64,000 nt of DNA from Clostridia bacterium. Its GTDB lineage: Bacteria; Bacillota; Clostridia; Oscillospirales; CAG-272. Below are positions 20,429 through 61,616 of this stretch, one piece after another. How positions within the stretch are numbered: the first letter of the stretch is position 1; each line of letters begins with the position of its first letter. A program made the position numbers and the translations under genes. The DNA lies in contig JAFTCN010000053.1 of the NCBI GenBank assembly GCA_017454675.1, positions 4,853 through 68,852 on the forward strand. Direction: 5' to 3'. Under the pieces are notes generated by a model that saw only the letters and a program-made list of their open reading frames with translations, had not been told where the DNA came from and searched no databases.

Positions 20429-22597
20429 TCAATACAGACCGATGTTCTTGGCCATGCCGCCGGCCTGCGGAAGCATGGTGTCGAGGTAGGTCTGGGGATC
20501 GCCGAAGTCAGGGCCCCAGCCGCAGACGTCGACGATGTTGTAGTTCATGGTGTCACCGGTCTCCGGATAGTAGCCGGCGTTATACCAGTTGAGAGCGTTC
20601 GAACCGCCGGTCTTTACGAGAACGACCTCGACGAGTTTGCCGAGAGAGGTCTCGATCGACTGCTTGAGAGCGTTGGCTCTGGCGGTGTAGATCTCGTTGA
20701 TGTCATAGTACGGAATCTCAAGCTTTATCGGGGTCTTCTCGGTGACGGTGATGCCCTGCTCCGCAAGCTCTTCGACAGCCTTGGCCATGTAAGCCTTCGC
20801 GTTCTCGGCATTGTACCATCCGTCAAATCCGGCAGAGGAGCCTGCGCCCTCTTCCTTGGTGGGATCCCAGACCTTGATCTTGATGCCGTCGGCATCGATC
20901 TGGTCCTGCATGATCTGTCCGTAGTAGGTTCCGGCGGCGTAGGTCTTGTCGGTGCCGTTGATCTTTACGGTCGCGGCCTCGGGAAGAGATACGAAGTTGC
21001 CGGGAGTGTAGGAGTTAACGAGCGACGTGAGCTTGAGTTCGTCGCCGGTCGTCGTGGCGTTGTAGGCGCCGCGGTCGAGAGCGGTGCAGACGGCAAGCCT
21101 GAAGTTCTGGTTGCCCATCGCGATGTTGGTACGGTTCTTCTGGTTGTCAGAGAGAGTCGTCGGAGCGATCGTGGGATCGTCGTAGTTGCCGTACTGAGCG
21201 CGGTAGAGGTTGAGGAACATCGGGTAGGAAGTCGCATCGGTGGCGGAGACGTAGGCGTACTCGTCAAAGAGTCCGTCGGCCTTGCACTTCGCGAGAGCCT
21301 GGGTGTTGAGGCCGGCGCCGGCGAATTTGCCTTCCTTGAACTTGTCGTAGCCGAATGTCGGGTTGGAACCGTCGGAGAATGTCCAGGTGATCTTCTTGAG
21401 CGTGACGGCGTCCTTGGCGTAGAACTTGTCATTGAGCTCGAAGACGATGCTGTTCTTCTCGGTGGCGGAAGTTACGAGATAAGCGCCGCAGTAAGCGATA
21501 TCGTTCGGGGTCTTGCCGTAGGTGTAAGCGTCGCTCTTGGCCTTTTCGGCAAATTCGTCAACGCCGAACACACCGCCCTTGGCAGCAAACTGGACCTCGC
21601 TCAGAGGAGCGAAGATGTTGTAGCCGAACATGGTGAGGAAGTAGGTGCAGGGGGCCTCGAGAGTATACTCAAGAGTATAATCGTCAACAGCCTTTACGCC
21701 GACCTGCGAGAAGTCGGTGATCTCCTTGCTCATGTAGGCGTCGGCATTCTTGATGATGCCGCTGACGAGGTACTCAAGTCCGCCCTGGGCGTCGAGCATG
21801 TGGTGCATGGCGGCCACGAAGGACTTGGCGGTAACGGGCTCAAGAACTCTGCCCTGAGAGTCGACCCAGTCGACGCCCTGGCGGATCTTGAAGGTGTAGG
21901 TAAGACCGTCGGCGGAAACGGTGGGCATCTCGGCGGCGAGAGCGGGCTTCAGCTCATTCTCAACATCATACTCGAGAAGTCCGGTATAGGTGTTGATGAT
22001 GGCTTCGGAGTCAGCCGAACGGTAGGTGTTGAAGGCGTCCCAGGTCTGAGGGTCAGAGGTGTAGCCGTACTCGTAGGTATCCTGGAAGGTGTAGCCCTTT
22101 CCGGTGAGGTACTTCTTGGCTTCCTCATAGTAGGTGCCGGTGCCCTTCTTGGCGTTCCAGAGAGCTTTGAGTTCGTTTCTCTCGGCAGCCTTGATCGGCT
22201 TGTCGCCCGCAACGATCAGGAGCCTGTAGTATCTGTAGGAGTCATTGCCCCACAGAACAGGCGTCGCGGTATAGGGAGCGACTTTGGAGATGGCGTAGTT
22301 GCCGCCCTTGGAAGTGGACGGGAGCATAACGCCGGATTCGAGAAGCTTTGCCTCGGCGATGGCCATGAGGGCAAATCTTTCGGCAACGGTCTTGGCTTCC
22401 TTTGCAGCCTTGTAAGCGGTATCGAACTCGCCGAGAACCTTCTCGTAGATTTCGTCGGAGATCTCAGCATGGGTCTTTCCCGCGTAAGGATCGGAAACAA
22501 TACCGCCTGCCTTCTCGGGATCGCTGCAGGCCGCGAATGACGCCGCAAGCATCACAAGCACGAGAGCGACCGAGATCAGTTTCATGAGTTTCTTCAT
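20429..22597 (-). CDS. oppA: oligopeptide-binding lipoprotein (AmiA/AliA-like), apparently circularly permuted
   Basis: Lipobox FAA-C24; GLLEYD, PALA, VSADGLTYTFKIRQG, VGVKAVDDYTLEYTL, NQNFRLA, WGPDFGDPQTYLD; strongly biased codon usage. Confidence 0.9.
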   Translation of the reverse strand: MKKLMKLISVALVLVMLAASFAACSDPEKAGGIVSDPYAGKTHAEISDEIYEKVLGEFDTAYKAAKEAKTVAERFALMAIAEAKLLESGVMLPSTSKGGNYAISKVAPYTATPVLWGNDSYRYYRLLIVAGDKPIKAAERNELKALWNAKKGTGTYYEEAKKYLTGKGYTFQDTYEYGYTSDPQTWDAFNTYRSADSEAIINTYTGLLEYDVENELKPALAAEMPTVSADGLTYTFKIRQGVDWVDSQGRVLEPVTAKSFVAAMHHMLDAQGGLEYLVSGIIKNADAYMSKEITDFSQVGVKAVDDYTLEYTLEAPCTYFLTMFGYNIFAPLSEVQFAAKGGVFGVDEFAEKAKSDAYTYGKTPNDIAYCGAYLVTSATEKNSIVFELNDKFYAKDAVTLKKITWTFSDGSNPTFGYDKFKEGKFAGAGLNTQALAKCKADGLFDEYAYVSATDATSYPMFLNLYRAQYGNYDDPTIAPTTLSDNQKNRTNIAMGNQNFRLAVCTALDRGAYNATTTGDELKLTSLVNSYTPGNFVSLPEAATVKINGTDKTYAAGTYYGQIMQDQIDADGIKIKVWDPTKEEGAGSSAGFDGWYNAENAKAYMAKAVEELAEQGITVTEKTPIKLEIPYYDINEIYTARANALKQSIETSLGKLVEVVLVKTGGSNALNWYNAGYYPETGDTMNYNIVDVCGWGPDFGDPQTYLDTMLPQAGGMAKNIGLY

Positions 22598-22640
22598 GAT
22601 TGGGTTTATTCCTCCTGAGAATAATATTGGTTTTCGAAGT

Positions 22641-22669
22641 ATTATACCTCAAACGCAACAGAATGTCAA
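22641..22669 (-). promoter_or_regulatory. promoter of the opp operon
   Basis: Minus strand TTGACA (22669-22664), 17 bp, TATAAT (22646-22641): perfect consensus. Confidence 0.85.
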
Positions 22670-22875
22670 GAATAAAATGATAAAAATGAAAGTACGGTAC
22701 TAAAATTATTCACCGGGAGACTCTTTTTTTGACTGAAACGGGGCAAATACCCGGTTTTCGCTGCCGCCTGCGGATAATCAGCCGCCCGTCCTGGTCTTTC
22801 TCCGGCCTGCGGCAGGTCCCGCACACCGGCGACTCACCGTCCGTTCGGACACCGTATGAAATAAAGCAAAAACAG

Positions 22876-22904
22876 TTGACAAATAACCGGAAAAAGTATA
22901 TACT
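22876..22904 (+). promoter_or_regulatory. promoter of valS
   Basis: TTGACA (22876-22881), 17 bp, TATACT (22899-22904). Confidence 0.75.
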
Positions 22905-23043
22905 ATAATCAGAAAAAAATTTATAAACGAAGCCGCCGTGTGTTTCAGGGATCCTTCCCTAACCAGGAACATGCCGGAGCGGTCCGCAGGTGCGGATCCG
23001 TGACGGTCCGCACCGAAGACGCGCGGCTGCGAAAGGAACCCGT

Positions 23044-25719
23044 ATGAACGATTCAGCACACGAGCTGCCGAAGACCTACGACCCCGCGGGATTCGAAGAC
23101 CGCATTTACGCGATGTGGATGGAAAAGGGCTACTTCACGCCCGATCCCGCCGACACGAGACCTCCCTTCTGCGTCGTCATCCCGCCTCCCAACGTGACGG
23201 GACAGCTCCACATGGGCCACGCCCTCGACGAGACCCTTCAGGACATACTCGTAAGATACAAAAGAATGAAAGGTTTCGACACCCTCTGGGTGCCGGGGAC
23301 CGACCACGCCGGCATCGCCACCCAGATCAAGGTTGAAGAACGCCTGAGAGTCGAAGAGGGACTTTCACGCTTCGACCTGGGACGCGAGGAATTCCTCCGC
23401 AGAGTCTGGGACTGGAAGGCGAAATACGGCACGAGGATCATAAGCCAGCTCCAGAAGCTCGGATCGTCGTGCGACTTCACCAGAGAAGCCTTCACGATGT
23501 CCGACAGACTTTCCGCCGCCGTAAAAAAGGTATTCGTAAAGCTTTATAACGACGGCCTTATCTACAGAGGACTCCGCATAACAAACCTCTGCCCGCACTG
23601 CAACACCGTCATTTCCGACGCCGAGGTCGACTACCGCGAGATAGAAGGCGCCTTCTGGCATATCAGATATCCCGTCAAGGGAGAGCCCGGACATTATGTG
23701 ACCGTCGCGACGACGAGGCCCGAGACTATGCTCGGCGACACCGCCGTGGCCGTCGCTCCCGGGGACGCCCGCTTCTCGGATCTCGTCGGAAAGACGCTCA
23801 TACTCCCGCTCGTAGGGCGCGAGATACCCGTCATCGAGGACGAGAACGTCGATCCCGGATTCGGCACCGGCTGCGTCAAGATCACGCCCGCCCACGACCC
23901 GAACGACTATGAGACCGGGCTCCGCCACGGACTCGAGAACATCATCGTCATAGACAACACCGCACACATCAACGAGAACGGCGGAAAATACGCCGGCCTC
24001 GACAGATTTGAGGCGAGGAAGAAGATCGTCGCAGATCTCGAGGCGGAGGGACTGCTCGTCAAGGTCGAGAAGTGCATGCACAGCGTCGGCCACTGCTACA
24101 GATGCGGCACGGTCCTCGAACCCGTCGCGTCCCGTCAGTGGTTCGTGAAGATGAAGCCGCTCGCCGAACCGGCGATCGAGTGCGTGCGCCGCGGCGATAC
24201 CTCATTTATCCCGGAGAGATTCTCGAAGAACTACTTCAACTGGATGGAGAACATCAAGGACTGGTGCATCTCAAGGCAGCTCTGGTGGGGCCACCGCATT
24301 CCCGCTTACTACTGCGGACACTGCGGCGAGGTCACGGTCTCCGAAGACGACGTCACGGTCTGCCCGAAGTGCGGCGGACACGATATCAGACAGGACGACG
24401 ACGTGCTCGACACCTGGTTCTCCTCCGCTCTGTGGCCTTTCACGACGCTCGGATGGCCCGATTCCGATGCCGACCTGAAAAAATACTATCCCACTTCCGT
24501 CCTCGTCACCGGATACGACATCATAACCTTCTGGGTCTCGAAAATGATCTTCATGGGACTGAAGTTCATGGGCGAGAAGCCGTTCTCGCACGTCTTCATC
24601 CACGGTCTTGTCCGCGACGCCGAAGGCAGAAAAATGTCAAAATCGCTCGGCAACGGCATAGACCCGCTCGAGATCATCGACAAGTACGGCGCCGACGCCC
24701 TGCGCTTCGCGCTTGCCACCGGAAACAGCCCCGGAAACGACATGCGCTTCTCCAACGAGAAGATCGAAGCGGCGAGGAATTTCGCGAACAAGCTCTGGAA
24801 CGCGTCGAGATTCGTTCGAATGAACCTGAAGGGTGACGAGGAAGGTCTTCCCTCCCCCGGCGCGATGTCGGCCGAGGACAGATGGATACTCGACCGCTTC
24901 GAACGCCTGACCGCATCGGTGACGTCGAACCTCGACAGATACGAGATAGGCATAGCCCTGTCGTCGGTATACGATTTCACCTGGGACATCTTCTGCGACT
25001 GGTACATCGAACTGTCGAAATCAAGACTCACCGGCAGGACCGGCACCGAAGCCGACAGGGACGCCGCCGCGAGAGTGCTGCTCTTCGTGCTCCGCGGGAT
25101 CCTCAAGCTGCTGCATCCGTTCATGCCGTTCATCACCGAAGAGATCTACATGTCGCTGCCGAGGCCGGCTTCCGAGCCCGAGAGCATCATGATCTCCTCT
25201 TTCCCCGAATTCGACGAAAAGCTCCTCTTCCCTGAGGATTCCGGCGACATCGAGAGGATCATAGCCGTCATCAAGGCAGTCAGGGCCCGCAGAAAAGAGA
25301 TGAACGTGCCGGCGTCGAAGAAAACGCGCATGTTCATAAAGAGCACCTTCCCCTGCTTCGGACGCCGCTCGTATCCCTTCTTCGAGCGTCTGGCTTCGGT
25401 CTCCGAGGCGGCGGACGCCGGGAGTGCGGATGAGATCGGCGGGGACGGCTTCGTCCAGATCGTCACCGATTCGGCGACCGTTTTCCTCCCGCTCGACGAG
25501 CTCGTCGACACCGAAAAGGAAAAGGCAAGGCTCACGGCCGAGACCGAGCGTCTGAAGGGAGAGATCGCGAGGGCCGAGGCAAAGCTCGCGAATCCCGGAT
25601 TCACATCGAAAGCCCCCGAAAAAGTCGTCGAGAACGAACGCGGCAAGCTTCTCAGGCTCAAAGAAACATACGCCGCGTCACTGGACGCCCTGTCAAAACT
25701 CGGACACCCAAATCACTAA
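23044..25719 (+). CDS. valS: valine--tRNA ligase
   Basis: PPPNVTGQLHMGHA (HIGH), GTDHAGIATQ, ATTRPETMLGD, WCISRQLWWGH, KMSKS, C-terminal coiled coil; ATG at 23044 after GAAAGGA. Confidence 0.98.
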   Translation: MNDSAHELPKTYDPAGFEDRIYAMWMEKGYFTPDPADTRPPFCVVIPPPNVTGQLHMGHALDETLQDILVRYKRMKGFDTLWVPGTDHAGIATQIKVEERLRVEEGLSRFDLGREEFLRRVWDWKAKYGTRIISQLQKLGSSCDFTREAFTMSDRLSAAVKKVFVKLYNDGLIYRGLRITNLCPHCNTVISDAEVDYREIEGAFWHIRYPVKGEPGHYVTVATTRPETMLGDTAVAVAPGDARFSDLVGKTLILPLVGREIPVIEDENVDPGFGTGCVKITPAHDPNDYETGLRHGLENIIVIDNTAHINENGGKYAGLDRFEARKKIVADLEAEGLLVKVEKCMHSVGHCYRCGTVLEPVASRQWFVKMKPLAEPAIECVRRGDTSFIPERFSKNYFNWMENIKDWCISRQLWWGHRIPAYYCGHCGEVTVSEDDVTVCPKCGGHDIRQDDDVLDTWFSSALWPFTTLGWPDSDADLKKYYPTSVLVTGYDIITFWVSKMIFMGLKFMGEKPFSHVFIHGLVRDAEGRKMSKSLGNGIDPLEIIDKYGADALRFALATGNSPGNDMRFSNEKIEAARNFANKLWNASRFVRMNLKGDEEGLPSPGAMSAEDRWILDRFERLTASVTSNLDRYEIGIALSSVYDFTWDIFCDWYIELSKSRLTGRTGTEADRDAAARVLLFVLRGILKLLHPFMPFITEEIYMSLPRPASEPESIMISSFPEFDEKLLFPEDSGDIERIIAVIKAVRARRKEMNVPASKKTRMFIKSTFPCFGRRSYPFFERLASVSEAADAGSADEIGGDGFVQIVTDSATVFLPLDELVDTEKEKARLTAETERLKGEIARAEAKLANPGFTSKAPEKVVENERGKLLRLKETYAASLDALSKLGHPNH

Positions 25720-25746
25720 TATACAGTTAAAAAGGAGAACGCTCTG

Positions 25747-26748
25747 ATGAAAAAAGCACTTTCTTCGATCCTGGCCGTCATAATGCTCGTCGCGCTCCTC
25801 ATTCCTGCCGCCGCGACCGAGACTTCCCCCGAGATCGACCTCTACACCCCCGCCGCCGACGGCGACCTGCTCTACACCGTCAACTTCACGGGCGACAGCA
25901 TGTACGAGCCCGGAAGATCCGTCTTCGCGGACGCCGACGTCGAGGTGACTCTTGACCAGCTCGACACCGGCAAAGTCACACTCAAGGGCCTGACTGACAA
26001 AGCTCAGGGCCGCTGGGGCGCCGAAGTCAAGGGACTCCCGCTCAACGAGAAGACAGCCTACACGCTCTACTACACCGTCACCAGATCGAGCACGATCAAC
26101 GAGAAGGATCCCGCGCTCGGGATCGCCGTCGACGACGTCTTCGGATTCTACGGCTATTCATACAACACGAGATTCCTTGAGAAAGGCAAGACGCTCGCCG
26201 GCCACAGCACCATCAAGTACGTCGACTCCGGCATCGCCGCCGAAGGCGATACCTACTCCACCGGCGAGAGCGTTCAGCACTACGCCCTCGAAGTAAACGG
26301 CCAGAAGGTCACGATGAAACTCTTCGTCATGGACAACACCGGAGCCTGGGTCCTCGCCGACGAGACGAAGGAAGGCGAAGTCCTTGTGTTCTACACAGAT
26401 AACATCGGCGTATTCTTCTACGTTTATTACATCAACATGGCCGTGACGATCAGCGACGTCACCATCCACAAGGGCATGAACATCTCGAAGGAGAAACTCC
26501 TCGATGTCGTCGAAACCGATCCGCCCGCGACAACAAAGACTCCGAAGACCGAAGCTCCGGTCACCACATCCGCCCCCGGGACCGATGCGCCGACCGAAGC
26601 AGGCGACGTCACCACTGCCGCTCCTGTCGTCACCACTGCAGCACCCGCCAGGGAAGAGGGCGGCTGCAAGTCGTTCGCCGCTCCCTCGGCCATCGTATTT
26701 GCGATAGCCGCCGGCGCGATCATGATCGGCAAAAAGAAACGCCGCTGA
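25747..26748 (+). CDS. secreted/surface protein with Thr/Pro/Ala linker and C-terminal GGC-TM-basic tail
   Basis: Signal peptide ending IPAAA; beta-rich domain; TTAAP-rich linker; EEGGCKSF, hydrophobic helix, KKKRR; RBS AAGGAG. Confidence 0.8.
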   Translation: MKKALSSILAVIMLVALLIPAAATETSPEIDLYTPAADGDLLYTVNFTGDSMYEPGRSVFADADVEVTLDQLDTGKVTLKGLTDKAQGRWGAEVKGLPLNEKTAYTLYYTVTRSSTINEKDPALGIAVDDVFGFYGYSYNTRFLEKGKTLAGHSTIKYVDSGIAAEGDTYSTGESVQHYALEVNGQKVTMKLFVMDNTGAWVLADETKEGEVLVFYTDNIGVFFYVYYINMAVTISDVTIHKGMNISKEKLLDVVETDPPATTKTPKTEAPVTTSAPGTDAPTEAGDVTTAAPVVTTAAPAREEGGCKSFAAPSAIVFAIAAGAIMIGKKKRR

Positions 26749-26767
26749 CCGAAGCGCCGCATAGCTG

Positions 26768-26807
26768 AAACATCCCCGCCTGATGATCCGGCGGGGATGT
26801 TTATTTT
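26768..26807. terminator. intrinsic terminator between convergent genes
   Basis: AAACATCCCCGCC-loop-GGCGGGGATGTTT followed by ATTTT. Confidence 0.85.
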
Positions 26808-26820
26808 AAGAGGAAGTGAT

Positions 26821-28329: not shown

Positions 28330-28405
28330 GGTAAATGATTCCTTTCGGAGCTGCGAGGCCGGGATGATCCCGGTCGGTATTCAGGTGATGACGCGTTTCC
28401 GCCGG

Positions 28406-29596: not shown

Positions 29597-29618
29597 GATT
29601 TCAGATGCCGGCGGAGGA

Positions 29619-30480: not shown

Positions 30481-30506
30481 CGGCTTTTCCTCTCAATCAC
30501 CGCGGG

Positions 30507-34596: not shown

Positions 34597-34609
34597 GTGT
34601 GCCCGTGTA

Positions 34610-35590
34610 TTACAGAAGATGCGCGACGGCATCCTCGCGTTCGCCGGGAAGCAGCTTCACCGGCGGTATGTCGAAAGCGGTGACGCAGCCGGTCTTCCCT
34701 TCGGCGCGCAGTCTGCATACCGCTCTGGCGAAGGCGGTGAGCACGCTTCCGGTGAATCCGGGATTCGAATCGAGCTTCAGCGAGAATTCCATGCGCTGGG
34801 ACTCCGTCCCGCCGCGCGTGGAGCCGGTCCTTATGACCGAACCTCCGTGAGGCAGTCCGCCGTGATCTCTCTTCATCTCTTCCGCGGAGATGAAGTGAAC
34901 GGTAGTTCTGTAATCGGCGAAATAAGCCGGCATGTTCACTATCTCTTCACGTATGCGGTCGGTGTCGGCCCCCTCTTCCGCGACGACATAGCATTCCCTC
35001 GTATGCTTCTCACCGGCAGAGAGCACCGGACGCTCGCCGTTCCTCACACGCGCGACCGCCTCCTCCACCGGGACCGTGTACTGCCTCGCGTCTGCGACGC
35101 CTTCGATCCTGCGGACCGCGTCCGAATGGCCCTGGCTCACTCCGCGGCCCCAGAAGGTATAGTCGCTGCCCTCGGGCAGGACAGCGTTCATATACAGTCT
35201 CGCCAGCGAGAAGAGTCCCGGATCCCATCCGACCGAGACGAGGGCTAGGTTGCCGCCTTCTTCGGCGGCTCTTCCCATCGCCGCCAGATGTTCGGGAATA
35301 TGCGAATGGTTGTCGAAGCTGTCGACGACGTTGAAGAACGCCGCGATCTCTGGCGTCGTCACCGGCAGGTCGGTAGCGCTTCCGCCGCAGTTGACGACCA
35401 CGTCGAAGCAGCCCCTGAACCGGGGCAGATCGGCGTATGAATAGACCTTTACTCCGTCGCGGACCGGCTTTACGGTCTCCGGGCCGCGGCGGGTGAATAT
35501 CGCCGTGAGCTGTATGTCACGGCTTTCGTTCATCGCGGCCTCGACTCCCTTTCCGAGGTTGCCGTAGCCGCATATAGCTGCTTTAATCAT
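34610..35590 (-). CDS. ddh: meso-diaminopimelate D-dehydrogenase
   Basis: GYGNLG, CGGSATDLP, VDSFD.H, GWDPGLFS, TFWGRGVSQGHSDAVRR, LDSNPGFT; true start MIKAAI at 35590. Confidence 0.95.
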   Translation of the reverse strand: MIKAAICGYGNLGKGVEAAMNESRDIQLTAIFTRRGPETVKPVRDGVKVYSYADLPRFRGCFDVVVNCGGSATDLPVTTPEIAAFFNVVDSFDNHSHIPEHLAAMGRAAEEGGNLALVSVGWDPGLFSLARLYMNAVLPEGSDYTFWGRGVSQGHSDAVRRIEGVADARQYTVPVEEAVARVRNGERPVLSAGEKHTRECYVVAEEGADTDRIREEIVNMPAYFADYRTTVHFISAEEMKRDHGGLPHGGSVIRTGSTRGGTESQRMEFSLKLDSNPGFTGSVLTAFARAVCRLRAEGKTGCVTAFDIPPVKLLPGEREDAVAHLL

Positions 35591-35652
35591 CTTTCCGTTC
35601 TCTGCTCTTTCTTCCCTGATCGATAATCCTGTCCGCGCTCTCCGACGGGGTC

Positions 35653-36408
35653 TCAGTCGGGATCCGCCGCCACGGCGAGGTCGCTCATGCCGTAGAGCCC
35701 GGGGCCCTTCCCTGCGATGAACCGGGCGGCCGATATCGCGCCCTCTGCGAAAAGCGTCCTTGAGTGCGCCTCGTGCTTCAGCGTCAGCGTCTGGCTGTCG
35801 GTGGAGATCAGTATCTCGTGGATGCCGGTGATTCCGCCCCGCCTCACCGAGCTGATCCCGATCTCGTTCCTGTCGCGAAGGCCGCGCGTCCCCGATTCGG
35901 CGCAAATATGAGAGCCGGGACGTGCGCGAGAGATCGCTTCTGCCAGCATCAGGGCGGTGCCGCTGGGAGCGTCCTTCTTGCGGTTGTGATGGGTCTCGAC
36001 GATCTCTATGTCGGCTTCGGGAAATGCCGACGCGGCGGTGACGGCGAGCTTCGCGAGCACGGCGACGCCGAGCGACATGTTGGCCGAAAAGAACACGGGA
36101 ATCTTCTCCGACGCTTCTCTTATAAGTTCTTTCTCCTCTGCCGTGTGGCCGGTCGTCGCTATGACGGCAGGGATGTTCCGCGAGACGGCGCACGACAGGA
36201 CGTCATGCACGGCGCTGTGGTGCGAAAAATCGATTATCACGTCGGCGGCAGTCGATGCCGGGATATCGGCAAGGGATCGGAAGCAGGAAACTCCGTCGCC
36301 CGAAATGTCGGAGAGCGCCGCGACCATTATTCCGTCGTCGCCCGCCGCGATCTTCTCGACCTCGACTCCCATCCTTCCGTTCGCGCCGTTGACTATGATC
36401 CTGATCAT
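35653..36408 (-). CDS. dapB: 4-hydroxy-tetrahydrodipicolinate reductase
   Basis: GANGRMG, IDFS, ATTG, NMSLG, ETHHNRKKDAPSGTA. Confidence 0.96.
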   Translation of the reverse strand: MIRIIVNGANGRMGVEVEKIAAGDDGIMVAALSDISGDGVSCFRSLADIPASTAADVIIDFSHHSAVHDVLSCAVSRNIPAVIATTGHTAEEKELIREASEKIPVFFSANMSLGVAVLAKLAVTAASAFPEADIEIVETHHNRKKDAPSGTALMLAEAISRARPGSHICAESGTRGLRDRNEIGISSVRRGGITGIHEILISTDSQTLTLKHEAHSRTLFAEGAISAARFIAGKGPGLYGMSDLAVAADPD

Positions 36409-48116: not shown

Positions 48117-49613
48117 ATGAAAGAAAAGAAGTACCTACTTGCACTCGACCAGGGAACGACGTCGTCCCGCGCGATCGTCTTCACGACCGACGGCAGGCCC
48201 GTCGCGACCTCGCAAAAGGAATTCAGGCAGTACTTCCCTCACGAGGGATGGGTCGAACACGACGCCCTTGAGATCAGGGACACGCAGTTCGAAGTCGCCC
48301 GCGAAGCGCTCGCGGCGGCAGGCTCGGACGCCGGCGAGATATACGGCATCGGCATCACTAACCAGCGCGAGACGACCGTCGTCTGGGACAGAAAGACAGG
48401 TGTCCCGATCTGCCCCGCCATAGTCTGGCAGTGCCGCAGGACTGCCGAATACTGCGACTATCTCAGATCCGAAGGTCTCACCGAGTTCATCCGCAGAAAG
48501 ACGGGACTCATTCCCGATCCCTACTTCTCCGGCACGAAGCTTCGCTGGATACTTGAGAACGTTCCGGGAGCGAGAGCGCGCGCCGAAGCCGGCGAACTCT
48601 GCTTCGGGACCGTCGACTGCTGGCTGATTTACTGCCTGACCGGCGGGCGCACTCACGCGACTGACGTCTCGAACGCATCGCGCACGATGCTGTACAACAT
48701 AAACACGATGGACTGGGACGGCGAGCTGCTCGAACTCCTCGGCATCCCGGAGAGCATCCTTCCGAAAGTCATGCCGTCGTCGGGACTCTTCGGCATGACC
48801 GACCCCGCCGTGTTCGGCGAGACGATCCCGGTCGCGGGAGTCGCCGGCGACCAGCAGGCCGCCCTCTTCGGCCAGTGCTGCTACGAGCGCGGGAGCGTCA
48901 AAAACACCTACGGGACCGGCGGATTCCTGCTCATGAACACGGGCGACCGTCCGGTGCTCTCGAAGAACGGACTGCTCTCGACCGTCGCGTGGCAGATCGG
49001 CGGAAAGACGACATACGCGCTGGAAGGTTCGGTATTCATCTGCGGCGCCGCGATCCAGTGGCTCCGCGACGGACTGGGACTTGTAGGATACGCCGGAGAA
49101 AGCGAAAAGATCGCCTCTTCCGTCGAGAACACCGGCGGAGTCTATTTCGTTCCCGCTTTCGTCGGACTCGGAGCCCCCTACTGGAACCCTCACGTCCGCG
49201 GCGCCGCGTTCGGAATCACCAGAGGCACGACGCGCGCGCATCTGGTCCGCGCCGTGCTCGAATCGATGGCATTCCAGACCGCCGACCTCATCGGCGTGAT
49301 GCAGAGCGACTCCGGCACGTTCATCCCCTCTCTGGCGGTCGACGGCGGAGCCTCGGCAAACGATCTGCTGCTCCGGATGCAGGCCGACCTGCTCGGGAAA
49401 AAGATCATAAGGCCGGGATGCGTCGAAACGACGGCCATGGGCGCCGCTTTCCTCGCGGGACTTGCCACGGGAGCCATAAGCTCTGCCGCCGACATCGTCA
49501 GGGAGCGGCATATCGCTGCCGAATTCTCGCCGCAGATCTCGCCGGCCGAACGCCAGGACAGGCTCGACAGCTGGCACAGGGCGGTAAAGGCGGCGGCTGT
49601 ATTCAGCGAATAG
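48117..49613 (+). CDS. glpK: glycerol kinase
   Basis: ALDQGTTSSR, GITNQRETT, VWQCRRT, YFSGTK, TDVSNASRT, GDQQAALFGQ, KNTYGTG. Confidence 0.97.
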   Translation: MKEKKYLLALDQGTTSSRAIVFTTDGRPVATSQKEFRQYFPHEGWVEHDALEIRDTQFEVAREALAAAGSDAGEIYGIGITNQRETTVVWDRKTGVPICPAIVWQCRRTAEYCDYLRSEGLTEFIRRKTGLIPDPYFSGTKLRWILENVPGARARAEAGELCFGTVDCWLIYCLTGGRTHATDVSNASRTMLYNINTMDWDGELLELLGIPESILPKVMPSSGLFGMTDPAVFGETIPVAGVAGDQQAALFGQCCYERGSVKNTYGTGGFLLMNTGDRPVLSKNGLLSTVAWQIGGKTTYALEGSVFICGAAIQWLRDGLGLVGYAGESEKIASSVENTGGVYFVPAFVGLGAPYWNPHVRGAAFGITRGTTRAHLVRAVLESMAFQTADLIGVMQSDSGTFIPSLAVDGGASANDLLLRMQADLLGKKIIRPGCVETTAMGAAFLAGLATGAISSAADIVRERHIAAEFSPQISPAERQDRLDSWHRAVKAAAVFSE

Positions 49614-49650
49614 ACCTCTTCTGCCGATCCGGAGACGAAAGGAGCCGCTC

Positions 49651-50313
49651 ATGGAAAAGAAGAACACGGCCCCCGGCAAAGGCGGGAAATATCCGCGTTT
49701 ACCTGCGAAAAAAAAGTCGCATCTCATTATTACACTCTCGCTCTCGCTTTACGGAATACTCCTCGCGGCCTTTGCGCCGCACCCGGCGCCCGACAGATAT
49801 CTATGTGCCGCCGCCATGCTGCTATCCTCGCTGGGAGACATCGTGCTCATGAACTTCCGGCCGGTCACCGACAGGCTCCGCCTTCACGGGTTCGTCGCCG
49901 GAGGAGCGGTCTTCGGCATCTCGCATATCATTTACGCCGCGGGATTCGCCGTCCTGAATCTCGTCCGCGGCGGAAGTTTTTCAAATGCCGGGCTCCTCGC
50001 GGCAGTGGCGGTGTGGGCTGCGCTCATAACTTTCGGAGCGTTCAGATACAGGGATGCCGGCGGATCGAAGCCGCTGTTCCTGCCTGTCGCGGGTTATCTC
50101 ACGCTGATATGCGCCGACTGCGCGTCGGTCTGGGCGGCCGCCGTATCGCTCGGCGGGCTGAGGTGGATCTCCGCCGCGGGAATATTCCTCTTTCTCGCAT
50201 CTGACCTGTTCATCTTCTTCGACAAGCTGCTCGGCGTCAGGACGAAAAACAACGACCTCGCGATCTGGATACTCTATCCCGCGGGCCAGTTCCTGCTCCT
50301 CGCCGGAGGATGA
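49651..50313 (+). CDS. YhhN family membrane protein (lysoplasmalogenase-like)
   Basis: Multi-TM; SSLGDIVL, F..G...F.ISHIIY, FLASD, W.LY..GQ. Confidence 0.8.
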   Translation: MEKKNTAPGKGGKYPRLPAKKKSHLIITLSLSLYGILLAAFAPHPAPDRYLCAAAMLLSSLGDIVLMNFRPVTDRLRLHGFVAGGAVFGISHIIYAAGFAVLNLVRGGSFSNAGLLAAVAVWAALITFGAFRYRDAGGSKPLFLPVAGYLTLICADCASVWAAAVSLGGLRWISAAGIFLFLASDLFIFFDKLLGVRTKNNDLAIWILYPAGQFLLLAGG

Positions 50314-52327: not shown

Positions 52328-52357
52328 AAGCCGGTTCTTTCCGGGCCGTACGCCCGC

Positions 52358-55749: not shown

Positions 55750-55829
55750 CCTGGATTCTCTTTTCCTGTGATGCGCTTTCCGCTTCATTACGCGCGGGCG
55801 GTCAGACCGCAGTTCCTCCGGCACTTTAT

Positions 55830-55858
55830 ATTATATAATATTTGCTCCTGTTTGTAAA
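55830..55858 (-). promoter_or_regulatory. promoter of metF-metH-dxs
   Basis: Minus strand TTTACA, 17 bp, TATAAT. Confidence 0.7.
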
Positions 55859-55897
55859 GTTTTGTTTTTCGGGACGCGCAGGCATCGCAAAACGCAC

Positions 55898-55926
55898 TTG
55901 AATTTTTCTGCCGAGTGTGATATACT
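55898..55926 (+). promoter_or_regulatory. promoter of the HAD-sulfatase-HAD operon
   Basis: TTGAAT, 17 bp, TGnTATACT. Confidence 0.7.
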
Positions 55927-55997
55927 TTTTTTATCCGCGACGAAGTCCCGCCAGAGCGCGGACAGGACAATGCCGGCGGGGAGACAACGGAGATAAT

Positions 55998-56666
55998 ATG
56001 GACCGAAAGATAAAGCTTTGTGTATTCGACCTCGACGGCACCACCGCGGACACGCTGCCAAGCATCATATATCACCTCAACGGAGTGCTTGTGTCGCACG
56101 GCTACCCCGAAGTGCCCGTCGAGTCTCACAAGTCACTTCCGGGAGGCGGTGCCCGCAGCCTCTTCGTAAAGGTATCGGCTATGGATGGCTACGCGGGCAT
56201 CGATATAGACGGAATGACGGCCGAGTGGATAAGCCGCTATTCCGCCGACCCCGTATACCTCACCTCTCCGTTCGACGGCATTGCCGACATGCTCCGCGAA
56301 CTCCGGGAGGCGGGTATCCGCACCGCGGTGCTGACGAACAAGAACGAACTTCTGGCAAGGTCCGTGGTCTCCGCACTGTACGGAGACCTCATAGAAAAGA
56401 CCGTCGGAGACGCTCCGGGTCGCGCCCTCAAACCCGATCCCGGAGAGCTGCTCGCCCTGTGTTCCGGATTCGGAGCGGATCCGTCGGAGTGCATCCACAG
56501 CGGCGATCATATGATCGATATACGCACCGCCAAAGCCGCCGGGACACTCTCCTGCGGCGTATCGTGGGGATTCAATCCGCCGGAGACGCTGGCCGCCGAA
56601 GGAGCGTCATTCATAGCTGAAAAGCCGGCAGACATATCGGCGGCCGCGCTCGGCGGAGCAGTATAA
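55998..56666 (+). CDS. HAD family phosphatase (phosphoglycolate phosphatase-like)
   Basis: FDLDGT, VLTNK, KPDP, GD..IDI..A, VSWGF; ATG at 55998 after GGAG. Confidence 0.9.
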   Translation: MDRKIKLCVFDLDGTTADTLPSIIYHLNGVLVSHGYPEVPVESHKSLPGGGARSLFVKVSAMDGYAGIDIDGMTAEWISRYSADPVYLTSPFDGIADMLRELREAGIRTAVLTNKNELLARSVVSALYGDLIEKTVGDAPGRALKPDPGELLALCSGFGADPSECIHSGDHMIDIRTAKAAGTLSCGVSWGFNPPETLAAEGASFIAEKPADISAAALGGAV

Positions 56667-56814
56667 AACAGCGCAGACGATACCGGACTTCCTCCGCGCC
56701 GGAACGTACCGGCAGGAAGGCGGCGTCAGCAGATAACAGGTAATTGTTCCGGACGCGGACCCGCCGTGACCGTGCGGATCCGGACTGAGAGAACATTCAC
56801 CGGAAGGAGCACAA

Positions 56815-58314
56815 ATGGCAGAAAACGACCGCAGAGCCCGCGGCGCGGGGAACGGAGCGGAACGTCCGAACGTCCTATTCATCTTCACCGATCAGCAGAG
56901 GCGCGACACGATATCCGCGCTCGGCAATCCCTGTATCGTGACTCCGGCACTCGACTCGATCGCGACCGCCCCGGATACATCCGTCTTCGACAGATGCTAC
57001 ACTCCGTCTCCGGTCTGCGTGCCGGCGAGGCTCGCGCTGTTCGCCGGGCAGTACTGCTCGAGGACCGGCAACAACAATAACAACGCCGTGAGCGTATACG
57101 AAGGTGAAGGCTTCTTCAAAAGGTTCACCGATGCCGGATACGACACCTGCTGCATCGGAAAGATGCACTACAAAAAGGACCCATACGGCCCCATGGGCTT
57201 CAGACGCCGAATAGTCCAGGAGGAGATGGCGGACCCGCGCGACGACTATATGAAATGGCTCCGCGGAACTCCATACCGGAACGTCTTCGACTACAACGGA
57301 CAGCGCACCGAGCTCTATTACATCCCGCAGGTGTCGCAGCTCCCTGCCGAGGCGCATCCGACGCAGTGGATCGGCGACCGGGCAGTCGAGTTCATAAACG
57401 GGGCAGGCAGGTCCGGCGAGCCATTCTTCCTTTTCGCCTCGTTCATACACCCGCACCCGCCATTTGCCCCGCCTTCACCGTGGAACAAGCTGTACCGTTC
57501 CCGCGTGAGACCGGCATTCGTACCGGAGGACGAGGACTCCTACCGGGATCTGCTCAGAAACAGATACACGCTCGACGCCCTGGCGATCTCGCCGCGCCGC
57601 CGCGAACTGCTCGTGCAGCACTATTACGCCTGCGTCTCATTCGTCGATTACCAGATCGGCAGGATCGTCGCTGCGCTGAAGGAGCGCGGACTGTATGATA
57701 ATACGATAATCGTCTTTTCGTCTGACCACGGCGAACTGCTCGGAGACTACCGATCGATGGGCAAGCGCACGATGCTCGACGCTGCGTCGAACATCCCGCT
57801 GCTCATTCGAGTTCCCGGATGCACGGGAGGCATAAGACACGATCCCGCGTCGCTCGTCGACATGGCCCCGACGCTCCTGTCCGCTTGCGGCATCGGCTAC
57901 CCCGGCGGCGAGTTCGACGGCGTCGATCTCATGAGCGACAGACACGACTTCGTATTCTCGCAGTACGAAAGCGGCCCGGCAGAGACATGTATGGCCGCAT
58001 CCGGGACCGACAAGCTCGTATGGTCCGCGATCGGCGGACGGTATTTCTATTTCGATTCCTTCCCCGACGGGAAGGACAGATTCGACCTCTCTCTACCCCG
58101 CGTAAGGGAACTGAAGGAGCGCCTCGACGCCTACATGTCATCAGACAGATGCCCTGCCCCGACTGAAGGTCCGGCGCGCACGAGCCCGCTGCTCCAGGAA
58201 TACGGCTCCTTCTATGCGCCCCTCGACGACCACTGCAGCACGATGGACGAGGAGCGGGCGAGGATGCCGGAGGGATACCCGATCACGCTCGGCTGCAAAC
58301 ATACCGATTACTGA
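56815..58314 (+). CDS. Cys-type (formylglycine-dependent) sulfatase
   Basis: RPNVLFIFTDQQR, signature CVPAR, IGKMH, HPHPP, SSDHGE. Confidence 0.93.
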   Translation: MAENDRRARGAGNGAERPNVLFIFTDQQRRDTISALGNPCIVTPALDSIATAPDTSVFDRCYTPSPVCVPARLALFAGQYCSRTGNNNNNAVSVYEGEGFFKRFTDAGYDTCCIGKMHYKKDPYGPMGFRRRIVQEEMADPRDDYMKWLRGTPYRNVFDYNGQRTELYYIPQVSQLPAEAHPTQWIGDRAVEFINGAGRSGEPFFLFASFIHPHPPFAPPSPWNKLYRSRVRPAFVPEDEDSYRDLLRNRYTLDALAISPRRRELLVQHYYACVSFVDYQIGRIVAALKERGLYDNTIIVFSSDHGELLGDYRSMGKRTMLDAASNIPLLIRVPGCTGGIRHDPASLVDMAPTLLSACGIGYPGGEFDGVDLMSDRHDFVFSQYESGPAETCMAASGTDKLVWSAIGGRYFYFDSFPDGKDRFDLSLPRVRELKERLDAYMSSDRCPAPTEGPARTSPLLQEYGSFYAPLDDHCSTMDEERARMPEGYPITLGCKHTDY

Positions 58315-58341
58315 CACGGACCAAGAAAGGATACAGACGAT

Positions 58342-59046
58342 ATGAAAAAGCTGATAGGCTTCGACCTCGACGGCACGCTGTCACAGCACCGTTCACCTCT
58401 CCCCGCCGAAAACCGCGAACTGCTCGACCGTCTGGGAAAAAAATACAGCCTGGTCATGGTCGCAGCCGGCAACTGTCCGCGCGTATACGGACAGATGGAT
58501 CACTATCCGATCGACATAATAGGCAACTACGGGATGCAGGAGAGCACGGTAAAAGACGGGAGGTTCGAGATCATACGCACCGACTTTACCGAGCCGGACA
58601 GAGAATGCTTCCTCGCGGTCACGTCATACCTTCGGAAAAAATACGGGTATACCGAATACGCCGGCGACCCGGTGGAGTTCCACCAGTCGGGCATGGTGAC
58701 CTTCCCGCTGCTCGGCACCGCCGCGAAGATCGAAGACAAGCTCGTCTTCGACCCAGACAGGTCGAAGAGGCGCCGCATGTACGGCGAAGTCCTGGCGCTC
58801 TTCCCCAACTACTCGGTATACATAGGCGGGTCGTCTTCCTTCGATTTTTCGGCAAAGCGGTACAACAAATACGATTCGCTGATGAGATACGCCGCCGAAC
58901 ACGGATTCACGAAGGACGAGATCCTGTACGTCGGAGACGATTTCGGCGACGGAGGCGGCGACAGCCATATCCGGCTCTTCGGAATGGATTACGTCAGGGT
59001 CGACGACTACCGCAGAACGCCCGACCTTCTGCGTTTCCTGCTCTGA
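58342..59046 (+). CDS. HAD-IIB hydrolase, phosphomannomutase (PMM)-like
   Basis: FDLDGTL, GMVTF, IGGSSSFD, YNK, YVGDDFGDGGGD. Confidence 0.75.
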   Translation: MKKLIGFDLDGTLSQHRSPLPAENRELLDRLGKKYSLVMVAAGNCPRVYGQMDHYPIDIIGNYGMQESTVKDGRFEIIRTDFTEPDRECFLAVTSYLRKKYGYTEYAGDPVEFHQSGMVTFPLLGTAAKIEDKLVFDPDRSKRRRMYGEVLALFPNYSVYIGGSSSFDFSAKRYNKYDSLMRYAAEHGFTKDEILYVGDDFGDGGGDSHIRLFGMDYVRVDDYRRTPDLLRFLL

Positions 59047-59104
59047 ACCGGCAAGCGCGCATGGCTCGATGAGCAGTGCCGCTCATGCCTGGCGCAACGT
59101 CATA

Positions 59105-59149
59105 ATGTCACAGACCCCGGAAGATCCGATCTCCCGGGGTCTGTGACAT
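59105..59149. terminator. long hairpin between convergent operons (probable terminator)
   Basis: 16-bp perfect inverted repeat ATGTCACAGACCCCGG / CCGGGGTCTGTGACAT; U tracts weak. Confidence 0.6.
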
Positions 59150-59177
59150 ATTATCTTTGCAGAAAACCGGCTCACGC

Positions 59178-59918
59178 TCAGGAGCCGAGGTAGCGCGAGA
59201 GGAATTCCCTCGTTCGCTGCTGCTCAGGGGCACCGAAGATCTGCTCCGGACTTCCCTGCTCGGCGATGACCCCCGCGTCCATGAAGATCACCCTGTCGGA
59301 GACCTCCCTCGCGAAAGCCATCTCGTGCGTCACGACGAGCATCGTAAAGCCGGCGCCGGCGAGCCTTCTCATGACGTTCAGCACCTCGCCGACCATCTCC
59401 GGGTCGAGAGCAGAGGTCGGTTCGTCGAAGAGTATGACCTCGGGTCCCATCGAGAGCGTCCTCGCTATCGCGACACGCTGCTTCTGTCCGCCCGACAGCT
59501 GTCGCGGCCTCGCGTTGATGAACTGCTCCATCCCGACCTTCGACAGGTATTCCAGCGCGGTCTTCTCGGCATCGGCCCGGGTCTTTCCCAGGACCTTCAT
59601 CTGACCTGCGGTGCAGTTGCCGAGCGCTGTCATGTTGTCGAACAGGTTGAAAGACTGGAAGACCATCCCGACTTTCGCCCTGTACCGGCGGATGTTGAAG
59701 CTCTTTGATGATATATCCGTGCCGTGAAAGAGTATCTTTCCGTCGGTCGGCGTCTCGAGCAGATTTATGCATCTGAGCATGGTGCTCTTGCCCGAGCCGG
59801 AAGAGCCGATGATGCTCACGACCTCGCCCTTCTTCACTCCGAAGTTTATGTCGGACAGGACGGTGTTCTCGCCGAATTTCTTTTTCAGATGCCGAAGCTC
59901 GATCACAAAGTCATCCAT
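59178..59918 (-). CDS. polar amino acid ABC transporter ATP-binding protein (probably lysine)
   Basis: [44 protein letters not shown]. Confidence 0.93.
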
Positions 59919-60687
59919 GACGCTCCTCCTGCGGAACTCTTATCTCCGCCTCGGGATCCGACTGTGAACCGCATATGACGTAGTTTTCGGAGCCGCTAAG
60001 CTTCTTCTCCGCGAGACGGAGGAGTCTCGTCACGGTAAACGTCAGGATGAAGTAGATCACGCACACGACGAGATAGGTCTGGAAGCTCTGGAAATTCTGC
60101 CGCTTGATTATGCCGGCGAAATAGTAGAGTTCGGTGACGCCTATTACGTTCAGGACCGAGGTGTCCTTGATGTTGATGACGAACTCGTTGCTGACCGACG
60201 GCAGAATGTTCCGCATCACCTGCGGGATGATCACGTGCAGCATCGTCTGCGGATGGCTCATGCCGATCGAAAGCGCGCCTTCTGTCTGGCCGCGGTCGAT
60301 GGAGATGATACCGCCCCTTACGATCTCGGCCATATAAGCGCCGGTGTTGATGGAAACGATGAACATGCCCGACGGTATGAGAGGAAGCGTCGCGCCGCCG
60401 CTCGCGAAGGCGTATCCCCAGTATATGACCATCGCCTGGACCATCATCGGCGTTCCGCGGAAGACTTCCACGTAAGCCGCGATTATCCCCTTTACGGCCC
60501 TGTGAAGTCCGCGGAGAAAGCCGTTCCGCGACTCCGGAGCCGTCCTGATAACGCCGGTGAGCAAACCGATCACGAGACCCGCGACCGTGCCGACCAGCGA
60601 TATGAGCATCGTATAACCGACGCCTTTGAGCAGATAACCGTGATAGTCCGCGATTATAGCCGCGACGTCTGAAAAGAACTGTGCCAT
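59911..60687 (-). CDS. polar amino acid ABC transporter permease (probably lysine)
   Basis: [41 protein letters not shown]. Confidence 0.93.
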
Positions 60688-60719
60688 AGATCACACCACG
60701 CGGGAGAATCAGCCCGCTT

Positions 60720-61616
60720 TTATTTCTTGATAATCACAACGAGGTTAGACGAATAGTAAACGCTGCTGAAGTCGATCTCCTTCGCACGTTCTGCGGTGGG
60801 GCTCATCCCGGCGACAATGGCGTCGACGGTCCCGGCCTGGACGGCGGGGATGAGCGAATCCCACTCAAGCGCGTAGATCTCGAGCTTCATTCCGAGGCTG
60901 GCGGCGATGTACCGGGCGATCTGTACGTCGTAGCCGTTGGCATACCTTCCGGCGGCGGGCTGCCCGTTCGGTTCGTAGATCGCGACTGCTCCGGCGGAGG
61001 GAGTGCCGAGGTCGGTCCAGTTAAAGGGCTCGTACGCGCATTCCATCGCGACCTTCAGCGTCCCGACGGGGTTCTCGGGCTCGGCGGCGGAAACGGCGAG
61101 CTCGCCGATCTCCTTGCCGGCAGAGAGCTTAACCATCTGCTCCATGAGGGCGGCCCTCTGTTCGGTCGTGACCTTAGCCAGTGCCTCGTTGATCCTTGCA
61201 GTGAGCTCGGAGCCCTTTTTCAGGCCGACGGCGATGCCGGTATCGGCGTCGGTGGCCTCGAATCCGGTGTCGTTGTTGACGAAGTGCAGATAGTCGAGCG
61301 ATTCCTCACTGAGACATATGGCCAGGGCCGTCGGTTCCTCGGCGATGTAGCCGTCTATGGCTCCGCTCTTGAGTGCGATGAGCAGATCGGCGAATTCGGG
61401 GTAGGTCGAGCCCTGGACTTTGCTTATCTGATTCAGCGCGTCGGCGTGGAATGTGCCTGCCTGCGCGGCTATCTTGGCACCGGCGAGGTCGGCTATCGAC
61501 TTTGCTGCCGAGATGTTCTTCGCGCCGCCTCCTCCGCAGGATACGAGCGCGAGCATGAGGATCGCGAGCACCGCGCAGAGCGCGGCAGTGAGTGTACGTC
61601 TTCTTGTTGATCTCAT
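60720..61616 (-). CDS. family 3 substrate-binding lipoprotein (probably lysine), apparently circularly permuted
   Basis: Lipobox LVS-C27; LKVAMECAYEPFNW, GYDVQIA, WDSLIPA, AGMSPTAER, IDFS..YY all in the C-terminal half; downstream of a lysine riboswitch. Confidence 0.88.
   Translation of the reverse strand: MRSTRRRTLTAALCAVLAILMLALVSCGGGGAKNISAAKSIADLAGAKIAAQAGTFHADALNQISKVQGSTYPEFADLLIALKSGAIDGYIAEEPTALAICLSEESLDYLHFVNNDTGFEATDADTGIAVGLKKGSELTARINEALAKVTTEQRAALMEQMVKLSAGKEIGELAVSAAEPENPVGTLKVAMECAYEPFNWTDLGTPSAGAVAIYEPNGQPAAGRYANGYDVQIARYIAASLGMKLEIYALEWDSLIPAVQAGTVDAIVAGMSPTAERAKEIDFSSVYYSSNLVVIIKK

Follow-up and report, generated by a model that had tools for sequence, protein, structure and literature searches.

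Among the substrate-binding proteins (SBPs) of ATP-binding cassette (ABC) importers, the printed precedents for natural circular permutation seem, as far as we searched, to be one sugar binder and, from structure comparison, the betaine binders. The sugar binder, TpMglB-2 (Tp0684), is a circularly permuted lipoprotein classed as 'Type Ic / Cluster Bc' in the part of Brautigam et al. 2016 consulted (PMC4990184), which places relatives in treponemes and Gram-positive gut bacteria and raises tethering as a possible driver. For the betaine binders, the consulted part of Lo & Lyu 2008 describes circular-permutation relationships among glycine-betaine-binding proteins, including OpuAC (2B4L), in comparison with ProX-type proteins (PMC2395249). 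In a further reference system, GlnPQ, tandem substrate-binding domains are fused to the permease (PMC8025302, consulted in part). In the literature searched, mostly without subscription journals, permuted proteins of the OppA/Ami or GlnH type were not described. Here, we describe one of each, P1 and P2, in a 64,000-nucleotide stretch of DNA (hereafter the window; assembly GCA_017454675.1, contig JAFTCN010000053.1, positions 4,853 to 68,852) from a ruminant-gut Clostridia genome, a 2.21-Mb draft of 59% G+C and 94.9% completeness that we label G000 and whose closest named relative is a rumen 'Ruminococcus sp.' metagenome-assembled genome (MAG). The original prediction for this window held that two SBPs, of families 5 and 3, keep intact lipoprotein signals and have swapped the order of their segments, and this was confirmed by swapped-order matches and by alignments of doubled sequences to hidden Markov models (HMMs). 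We consider it very probable that P1 and P2 are natural circular permutants and complete working SBPs of ordinary ABC importers, that they belong to families of their own, and that their meeting in one window is a coincidence and not a property of the lineage.

Conservation was read from two alignments, A1 (P2 and 25 homologues, 26 rows) and A2 (26 P1-family homologues). P2, the family-3 protein, is made up as follows:

60720..61616, minus strand: P2, circularly permuted family-3 (cluster F) amino-acid-binding lipoprotein of 298 amino acids (open reading frame (ORF), swapped-order matches, model)
61536..61616, minus strand: signal peptide and lipobox of P2 (residues 1-27, Cys27; Cys27 is invariant in 26/26 sequences of A1)
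61107..61529, minus strand: segment B of P2 (residues 30-170), the canonical second half (small lobe and C-terminal helices), which now comes first
60723..61106, minus strand: segment A of P2 (residues 171-298), a joining linker of ~18 residues followed by the canonical N-terminal half up to the strand crossing over into the small lobe

The Pfam model SBP_bac_3 (PF00497) matches P2 with 83.3 bits (cut-off 26.4) over profile positions 20-92 of 132 only, at residues 225-298. Against AncQR (4zv1), P2 residues 204-298 align to positions 10-104 and residues 36-149 to positions 107-217, placing the cut at about 4zv1 104-107. Six natural canonical relatives each matched P2 as two strong pieces in swapped order; in the best of them (L001), residues 41-148 correspond to P2 185-298 (E 2.7e-39) and residues 151-282 to P2 34-165 (E 4.9e-35), and these E-values exclude chance. 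As a further test of completeness, each protein was joined to itself and the doubled sequence aligned to an HMM of canonical order. Doubled mature P2 matched positions 10-257 of the 262 in its canonical HMM (built from 30 sequences) with 320 bits, starting at offset 155. Thus, both lobes of P2 are complete, and the canonical order, with the large-lobe half first, is absent.

The AlphaFold2 model of P2 has a predicted local distance difference test score (pLDDT) of 91.2 and a predicted template modelling score (pTM) of 0.82. Because Foldseek and VIA-align align chains sequentially, we used lobe-wise ranges for superposing the permutants on canonical chains. In lobe-wise superpositions of the model, residues 34-120 correspond to domain 2 of TmArgBP and residues 182-293 to its domain 1, with 1.0-1.9 A for solved lobes overall, and residues 166-184 form a coil that joins the old C-terminal helices to the old first strand. 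As modeled, the lipid tether of P2 has moved to the other lobe. The 26 sequences of A1 have a mean column identity of 71%, all rows end at the same strand, and Cys27 as well as the motifs GMSPTxER, YANGYD, and GTFH are invariant. The stretches GMSPTAER and DGYIAEEP of P2 align to the matching stretches of AncQR, and S272, R277, E93, and E94 are invariant in A1; we take the Arg and Ser of GMSPTxER and the small-lobe acidic positions to be those that hold the amino-acid backbone in family 3. An insertion before YANGYD is common to P2 and its own canonical kin. P2 also has a wide family, in which the best 120 protein clusters are 63-97% identical to it at a coverage of 88-100% and all 80 of the 80 genome loci kept are colinear with it at 53-98% identity. 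The P2 sequence is present in the ESM Atlas under generic names only.

An artefact, be it an assembly error, a piece of a tandem gene, or a pseudogene, is virtually impossible as the source of the swapped order. P2 does end exactly at the lobe crossover and shortly before its permease gene, as a truncated tandem domain would. Against this, the reading frames of both proteins are intact and start with signal peptides, every canonical part is present exactly once, full-length homologues are conserved by the hundreds, and the fold of P2 is predicted with confidence. Moreover, the P2 gene is found on DNA contigs of two other studies, with 1 and 4 mismatches, and because these contigs are independent, it is not an assembly artefact.

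P1, the family-5 protein, is encoded by an ORF with the following parts:

20429..22597, minus strand: P1, circularly permuted Ami/Opp-type (family 5, cluster C) oligopeptide-binding lipoprotein of 722 amino acids (exact ORF coordinates)
22526..22597, minus strand: signal peptide and lipobox of P1 (residues 1-24, Cys24; Cys24 in at least 90% across the 26 homologues of A2)
22103..22492, minus strand: segment T of P1, the relocated tail (residues 36-165), with the final stretches of domain III and domain I and, by alignment, the Ali-type helix alpha19 (AmiA alignment, canonical HMM)
20432..22102, minus strand: core of P1 (residues 166-722), from the canonical N-terminus through the WxxD peptide-binding strand, ending inside domain III (canonical HMM 32-546)

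Residues 215-712 of P1 match positions 1-364 of 368 in the Pfam model SBP_bac_5 (PF00496) colinearly and with 119.5 bits (cut-off 32.4), leaving ~170 residues ahead of the usual start and few residues after the end of the match. In comparisons with the solved AmiA, AliB, AliC, and AliD, P1 170-721 aligned to chain positions 4-506 and P1 50-162 to positions 519-631. The same swap was evident in comparison with a canonical relative of the same genus (L015), in which residues 39-314 correspond to P1 158-433 and residues 548-652 to P1 44-152 (E 1.7e-6), and likewise with a second canonical relative (L013). Single P1 gave two swapped matches to a canonical-order HMM of 666 positions built from 20 canonical-order relatives, with hmm 556-661 matched by mature residues 21-127 (68.8 bits) and hmm 32-546 by mature residues 143-697 (475 bits), whereas doubled P1 gave a single alignment over hmm 33-661 of 666 with 554.9 bits. 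Because the doubled sequence aligns end to end in one piece, each canonical part is present once and the cut lies between hmm 546 and 556. The three-domain chain of P1 is, therefore, complete, and the canonical order, with the N-terminus of domain I first and the tail last, is absent.

In the part of Alcorlo et al. 2024 consulted, lobe 1 of AliD consists of domain I (29-63, 191-296, 583-617) and domain II (64-190), lobe 2 of domain III (297-582), and helix alpha19 of residues 622-652 (PMC11192437). Residues 171-722 of the AlphaFold model of P1 align to AliD 29-526. Because the C-terminus of P1 thus falls at about AliD 526, inside domain III, its new N-terminus is in lobe 2, and the lipid anchor would leave from lobe 2 instead of lobe 1. 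A Trp and an Asp on the lobe-2 strand of Ami proteins bind the peptide N-terminus, again according to the part of that source consulted (PMC11192437). W694 and D697 of P1 are invariant in the 26 sequences of A2 and align to this motif in AmiA, in a region where the model is of low confidence. Toward the other end, P1 ~133-162 aligns to about 603-631 of the AmiA chain and is helical in the model (H137-150 and H156-166). Among the best 813 Foldseek matches, no solved chain aligned across the whole P1 model and none started before model residue 155. We also note that precomputed annotation assigns PF27766 to six P1 homologues (P0141, P0144, P0149, P0198, P0212, and P0237).

The relocated tail of P1 could in principle have been captured from a neighboring paralogous binding-protein gene by fusion and trimming, making P1 a mosaic. 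The scores agree with such an origin in that the tail matches canonical tails with far fewer bits than the core matches canonical cores (68.8 and 475 bits), and a like possibility was raised for TpMglB-2 in the consulted part of Brautigam et al. (PMC4990184). However, all relatives have a short and variable tail, the P1 segment follows the canonical tail residue by residue (hmm 556-661) with no canonical copy at the C-terminus, and no two-gene intermediate was seen among the best 150 representatives; overall, we consider a mosaic unlikely. Under a single-gene or a mosaic origin alike, P1 is a circular permutant.

The P1 family was surveyed in the best 150 of 5317 representatives at 50% identity, among which 69 were full-length and tail-first, 24 canonical, 7 without a detected tail, and 50 fragments. 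In a tree made with FastTree only, from 65 re-cut permuted and 25 canonical representatives, 61 permuted forms fell into one clade (0.98) and at least four order changes were needed overall: the permuted P0412 groups with the canonical P0413 and P0436 (0.999), and P0472 and P0483 sit within a canonical clade (0.99). One cut, at hmm ~547-556, is common to all permuted forms of the family. A third order was found in P0426, which is nested among P1-type proteins in this quick tree and has only alpha19 in front and the other tail parts last (its 29-584 corresponding to P1 132-721 and its 597-677 to P1 37-117). The best 120 protein clusters of the P1-type family are 57-100% identical to P1.

The genes of the P2 transporter follow P2, which ends 33 bases before the permease gene, and together span 59178..60687 on the minus strand:

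59911-60687, minus strand: permease of the P2 transporter (Pfam)
59178-59918, minus strand: ATPase of the P2 transporter (Pfam)

The operon order of SBP, permease, and ATPase is identical beside canonical and P2-type relatives, and the P2 operon was present in animal-gut metagenomes of 13 studies. The gene coaE adjoins the P2 operon in G000 and a near-identical genome (L017) only, and the canonical operon in the congener G720 (L003), a comparison that covers few loci. Permeases encoded beside P2-type genes are 68-77% identical to that of G000, the one beside the closest canonical relative (G728) 66%, and those beside other canonical genes 50-55%, with only 50% in congeners, whereas the ATPases of congeners are 73-75% identical to that of G000 whatever the SBP type. 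Because permease identity follows the SBP type while ATPase identity does not, receptor and permease evidently travel together.

To place P2 among its differently organized kin, segments A (canonical first half) and B (second half) were mapped in 120 longer P2 relatives. The most frequent architecture was A-B followed by the transmembrane domain (TMD) of a permease (A-B-TMD, 86 of 120); the others were B2-A-B1-TMD (22 of 120), B-A-TMD (8 of 120), B-A-B-A-TMD (2 of 120), A-B-A-B-TMD (1 of 120), and one other architecture (1 of 120). The B2-A-B1 form represents a second cut site, inside the small lobe, and was permease-fused in 22/22 cases (P0257, P0259, P0262, P0290, and 18 more). In P0262, residues 104-301 correspond to residues 33-231 of the canonical L016 (50% identity) and residues 39-81 to L016 225-267, and the offset against the canonical HMM is ~84 in this form versus ~155 in the P2-type. 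In a quick maximum-likelihood tree of family 3 with all forms re-cut to canonical order and only Shimodaira–Hasegawa-like approximate likelihood-ratio test (SH-aLRT) support, the P2-type sequences, whether free, fused, or tandem, formed one group of 42 rows (support 93), the second-cut sequences a clade of 11 rows (99), and the canonical sequences a clade of 29 rows (98). The units within each tandem protein were each other's sisters and, therefore, represent recent duplications.

Of 401 genomes sampled from the phylum, 27 had both pieces adjacent in canonical order and only G000 and the distant G082 had them colinear with P2. The G082 protein (L009:1458-2261, plus strand) is a 267-amino-acid lipoprotein of the classic GlnH/ArtJ subfamily, cut at the loop at which P2 is cut. 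It matches AncQR with swapped halves (E 1.6e-57) and P2 with E 2.5e-28, and it is without the insertion of P2 and its canonical kin. Because it is far closer to AncQR than to P2 and is without this insertion, we regard it as an independent permutation at the same loop.

The P1 transporter genes lie downstream of P1 and together occupy 14491..20291 on the minus strand, in the order OppB, OppC, OppD, and OppF:

18651-20291, minus strand: OppB-like permease of 546 amino acids with a large extracellular region (Pfam, NCBIfam; BPD_transp_1 domain at 348-540)
17643-18644, minus strand: OppC (Pfam, NCBIfam)
15835-17646, minus strand: OppD of 603 amino acids with an insertion of ~230 amino acids (Pfam, NCBIfam)
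14491-15819, minus strand: OppF (Pfam, NCBIfam)

P1-type genes are followed by a 523-546-amino-acid OppB, OppC, and OppD in three other genomes (L011, L012, and L014), and a further locus (L010) carries a fragment. The insertion in OppD of the P1 operon lies inside the ATPase domain and splits the Pfam ABC_tran match into two stretches; G621 has this insertion in its P1-type operon as well, and it is missing next to a canonical relative (G598). This OppD spans the Mycoplasma-type OppD model NF043079 end to end with 706.6 bits (cut-off 740), and OppF of the same operon scores 440 bits against the Mycoplasma OppF model. Because of the end-to-end OppD match, we considered whether Mycoplasma-type OppA is permuted like P1 and rejected this, as the Mycoplasma OppA profile opens with the canonical N-terminus (P1 179-269 corresponding to profile 44-136). 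We also observed the P1-type unit as a module of long proteins (P0378, P0421, P0381, P0401, P0433, P0389, P0392, P0414, and P0446): it stands behind a Ser/Thr protein kinase domain in P0378, behind a TIR domain in P0421, and in others behind LRR_5, SLH, dockerin, Ig, and PKD modules, and it precedes SLH repeats in P0414 and LRR repeats in P0446.

These relationships bear on the possibility that the permuted order is not near-neutral but was selected for a new property, such as a lobe-2 tether that alters how receptor and translocator meet or an N-terminus able to carry modules. The permease identities that follow the SBP type while those of the ATPases do not, the use of the P1-type unit as C-terminal module behind protein kinase, TIR, SLH, LRR, Ig, and dockerin modules, and the independent cut of the same loop in the other family-3 subfamily (L009) all fit such selection. 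Nevertheless, the co-variation of permease and SBP is explained equally well by inheritance or exchange as one module, and canonical substrate-binding domains are also fused to permeases (86/120). We regard selection of the order as rather unlikely.

The original prediction went further and suggested that this lineage may repeatedly re-anchor its SBPs via the opposite lobe, perhaps owing to the geometry of its envelope, to which other pressures specific to the lineage can be added. We examined this in 36 congeners, 150 genomes of the family, and samples of the class. P2-type genes were present in 18/36 congeners, 25/150 family genomes, and 2/300 other class genomes (G407 and G634), and in 0/24 other families of the order; P1-type genes were present in 5/36 congeners, 12/150 family genomes (two more partial), and 4/299 other class genomes (G413, G621, G330, and G592). 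Among the P2-type loci, labels such as Escherichia coli, Collinsella, Bacteroidaceae, and Acidiphilium ('cleanbin'/MAG) are probably binning labels and were unused as evidence of range. The two types occurred together in 2/150 family genomes (2.0 expected) and 2/36 congeners (2.5 expected; Fisher p = 1.0), figures that are descriptive only because genomes of kin are not independent. This is the level expected by chance.

Within G000, ~40 other binding proteins are without a swapped order. Two other family-3 proteins and one other family-5 protein match their profiles colinearly; the family-1 and family-8 Pfam matches, in 10 and 6 places, respectively, are in profile order, several of them partial; and the canonical order is also found in MetQ, ZnuA, and Bmp. 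When 127 lipoprotein candidates of G000 were all compared with one another, no order swap was seen among 31 paralogous binding lipoproteins of ~500 amino acids. PF13407 (Peripla_BP_4, the TpMglB-2-type sugar binder) had zero matches in G000, as had PF01497.

A habit of the lineage would account for two unrelated families being permuted in one 64-kb window with the tether moved to lobe 2 in both, and for the higher frequency of both types in the genus and family compared with the class sample; adaptation to tethering was also raised for TpMglB-2 in the part of Brautigam et al. 2016 consulted (PMC4990184). It is, however, at odds with the canonical order of the other binding proteins of G000, including further members of families 3 and 5, with the independent occurrence of P1-type and P2-type genes, and with the presence of each type in other families of the class. 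The canonical relatives of P1 and P2 in the same genus are lipoproteins as well. Envelope geometry as the cause is not supported. Finally, each type has one fixed cut point, which would be expected of an inherited family rather than of repeated local events. We conclude that a lineage habit is very improbable: the other SBPs examined are without a swap and the distributions of P1 and P2 are separate and patchy. Of the proposed re-anchoring, the tether to lobe 2 stands, from the superpositions and the AliD alignment, while the tendency of the lineage falls with the unswapped SBPs. P1 and P2 each represent their own conserved family with a fixed cut, patchily distributed among gut and rumen Clostridia (Oscillospirales-type), and because each belongs to a widespread family of its own, their presence in one window is a coincidence.

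In addition to the non-independence of kin genomes, several points weigh against our preferred reading of two unrelated, working permutants. Both types are commoner in the genus and family of G000, where common ancestry or gene exchange between neighbors may add a weak effect of lineage. That P1 and P2 function is suggested by conservation and context. Contigs from two RNA libraries of one study match parts of P2, which hints at transcription, but DNA may be present in these libraries. The P1 model is weak at the new C-terminus, where residues 677-722, including the WxxD strand, have a pLDDT of 41-49. Tandem forms and tail-core-tail forms of P1 were not seen among the best 150 of 5317 representatives, which is weak evidence, and we infer the origin of P1 by duplication or fusion with subsequent trimming by analogy. 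In family 3, the tandem forms found arose by recent duplication and are not ancestors of P2.

With these points in mind, we still favor the reading in which P1 and P2 are two complete, independently arisen permutants, and suggest the following scenario. P1 would deliver oligopeptides to an importer of the Ami/Opp type, and P2 would deliver polar amino acids to its own importer. In P1, the final ~120 canonical residues now stand ahead of the canonical N-terminus; in P2, the chain opens with the small lobe and closes with the canonical first half. In both, a short linker joins the old termini. The new termini would lie in a surface loop on the other lobe than the usual anchor, so that the lipid tether would leave from lobe 2. 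Because the residues for binding and the partners for docking are conserved, both proteins should capture and deliver ligands as their canonical relatives do. The most likely origin is a duplication or fusion of binding domains in which both ends were then trimmed, and in family 3 tandem and permease-fused forms persist in both registers. The history of tandem SBPs invoked in the original prediction accordingly has counterparts in family 3 (A-B-A-B-TMD, B-A-B-A-TMD, and B-A-TMD) and none for P1 among the best 150 representatives.

In a broader version of this scenario, circular permutation would have recurred in two groups of binding proteins of gut Clostridia, family 3 and the Ami-like family 5, both being hot spots of such changes; we consider this possible but somewhat short of probable. 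In family 3 there are at least three independent re-cuts, namely the P2-type, the L009-type at the same loop, and the B2-A-B1 form cut within the small lobe, and the tree of the Ami-like family calls for at least four order changes, P0426 included. Tandem and permease-fused forms, present in both registers, could be the raw material for such re-cuts, and selection, if any, may have acted on the relocated tether or on an N-terminus available for fusion to kinase, TIR, or cell-wall modules.

In the remainder of the window, none of the other 36 large ORFs was recognized by Pfam as a third binding protein. P1 and P2 are separated by ~40 kb that contain valS, polA, genes for arginine and lysine synthesis, ffh, dxs, and metH, and because these are housekeeping genes, the window is part of the chromosome core. 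Three other ORFs deserve mention. For that at 34610-36193 (minus strand), at most 527 amino acids long, the diaminopimelate dehydrogenase model spans residues 201-527 only, and either the true start lies downstream or there is an unexplained N-terminal extension of ~200 residues. A 1041-amino-acid ORF at 1488-4613 (plus strand) adjoins rhaA and has no Pfam match and a weak alpha-L-rhamnosidase match (39.8 bits), and a 530-amino-acid ORF at 48135-49727 (minus strand) has zero matches in Pfam and NCBIfam.

Permutation is thus found here in two protein families that feed peptides and polar amino acids into the cell, in the form of large conserved families of gut and rumen Clostridia. Because Pfam and annotation pipelines recognize the domain only in part (in P2, profile 20-92 of 132), such proteins may be mis-scored as fragments. 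The occurrence of canonical, tandem, fused, and differently cut relatives in one operon type provides a natural series for relating chain order to tether position and docking, and for designers of biosensors on these scaffolds the permutants offer naturally validated cut sites.

When P1 is compared with the pneumococcal AmiA, AliA, AliB, AliC, and AliD (8a42, 8qlj, 8qlh, 8qlc; PMC11192437, consulted in part), the difference lies in the chain order, with the tail including alpha19 first, and in the anchor, which in Ami/Ali proteins is in domain I and in P1 would be in lobe 2. An AmiC-like permease with a large extracellular region together with OppC/D/F is found in the operon of P1 and at other P1-type loci as well. 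P2 resembles AncQR (4zv1), GlnBP (1ggg), LAO, TmArgBP, and SBD1/SBD2 of GlnPQ (6h30) in its lobes, in the Arg and Ser of GMSPTxER, and in the operon with a permease and an ATPase, and differs from canonical cluster F proteins by the swapped halves, the ~18-residue linker of the old termini, and the insertion before YANGYD. To TpMglB-2, a cluster B sugar binder (Peripla_BP_4), the likeness is one of kind and not of family, as P1 and P2 match PF00496 and PF00497 only. The chain order of P2 is the same as that of Bacillus subtilis OpuAC (2b4l, 2b4m), but the two are only 12-13% identical and differ in Pfam family (OpuAC, PF04069, of which P2 is no member) and ligand class, and because the sequence relatives of P2 are GlnH/ArtJ-like, this likeness is convergent. 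Finally, as in GlnPQ-type transporters, relatives of P2 have one or two N-terminal binding domains on the same kind of permease, whereas P2 itself is a free lipoprotein; of the 120 long relatives, 8 and 2 have fused domains of the permuted register and 22 have fused domains with the second cut.

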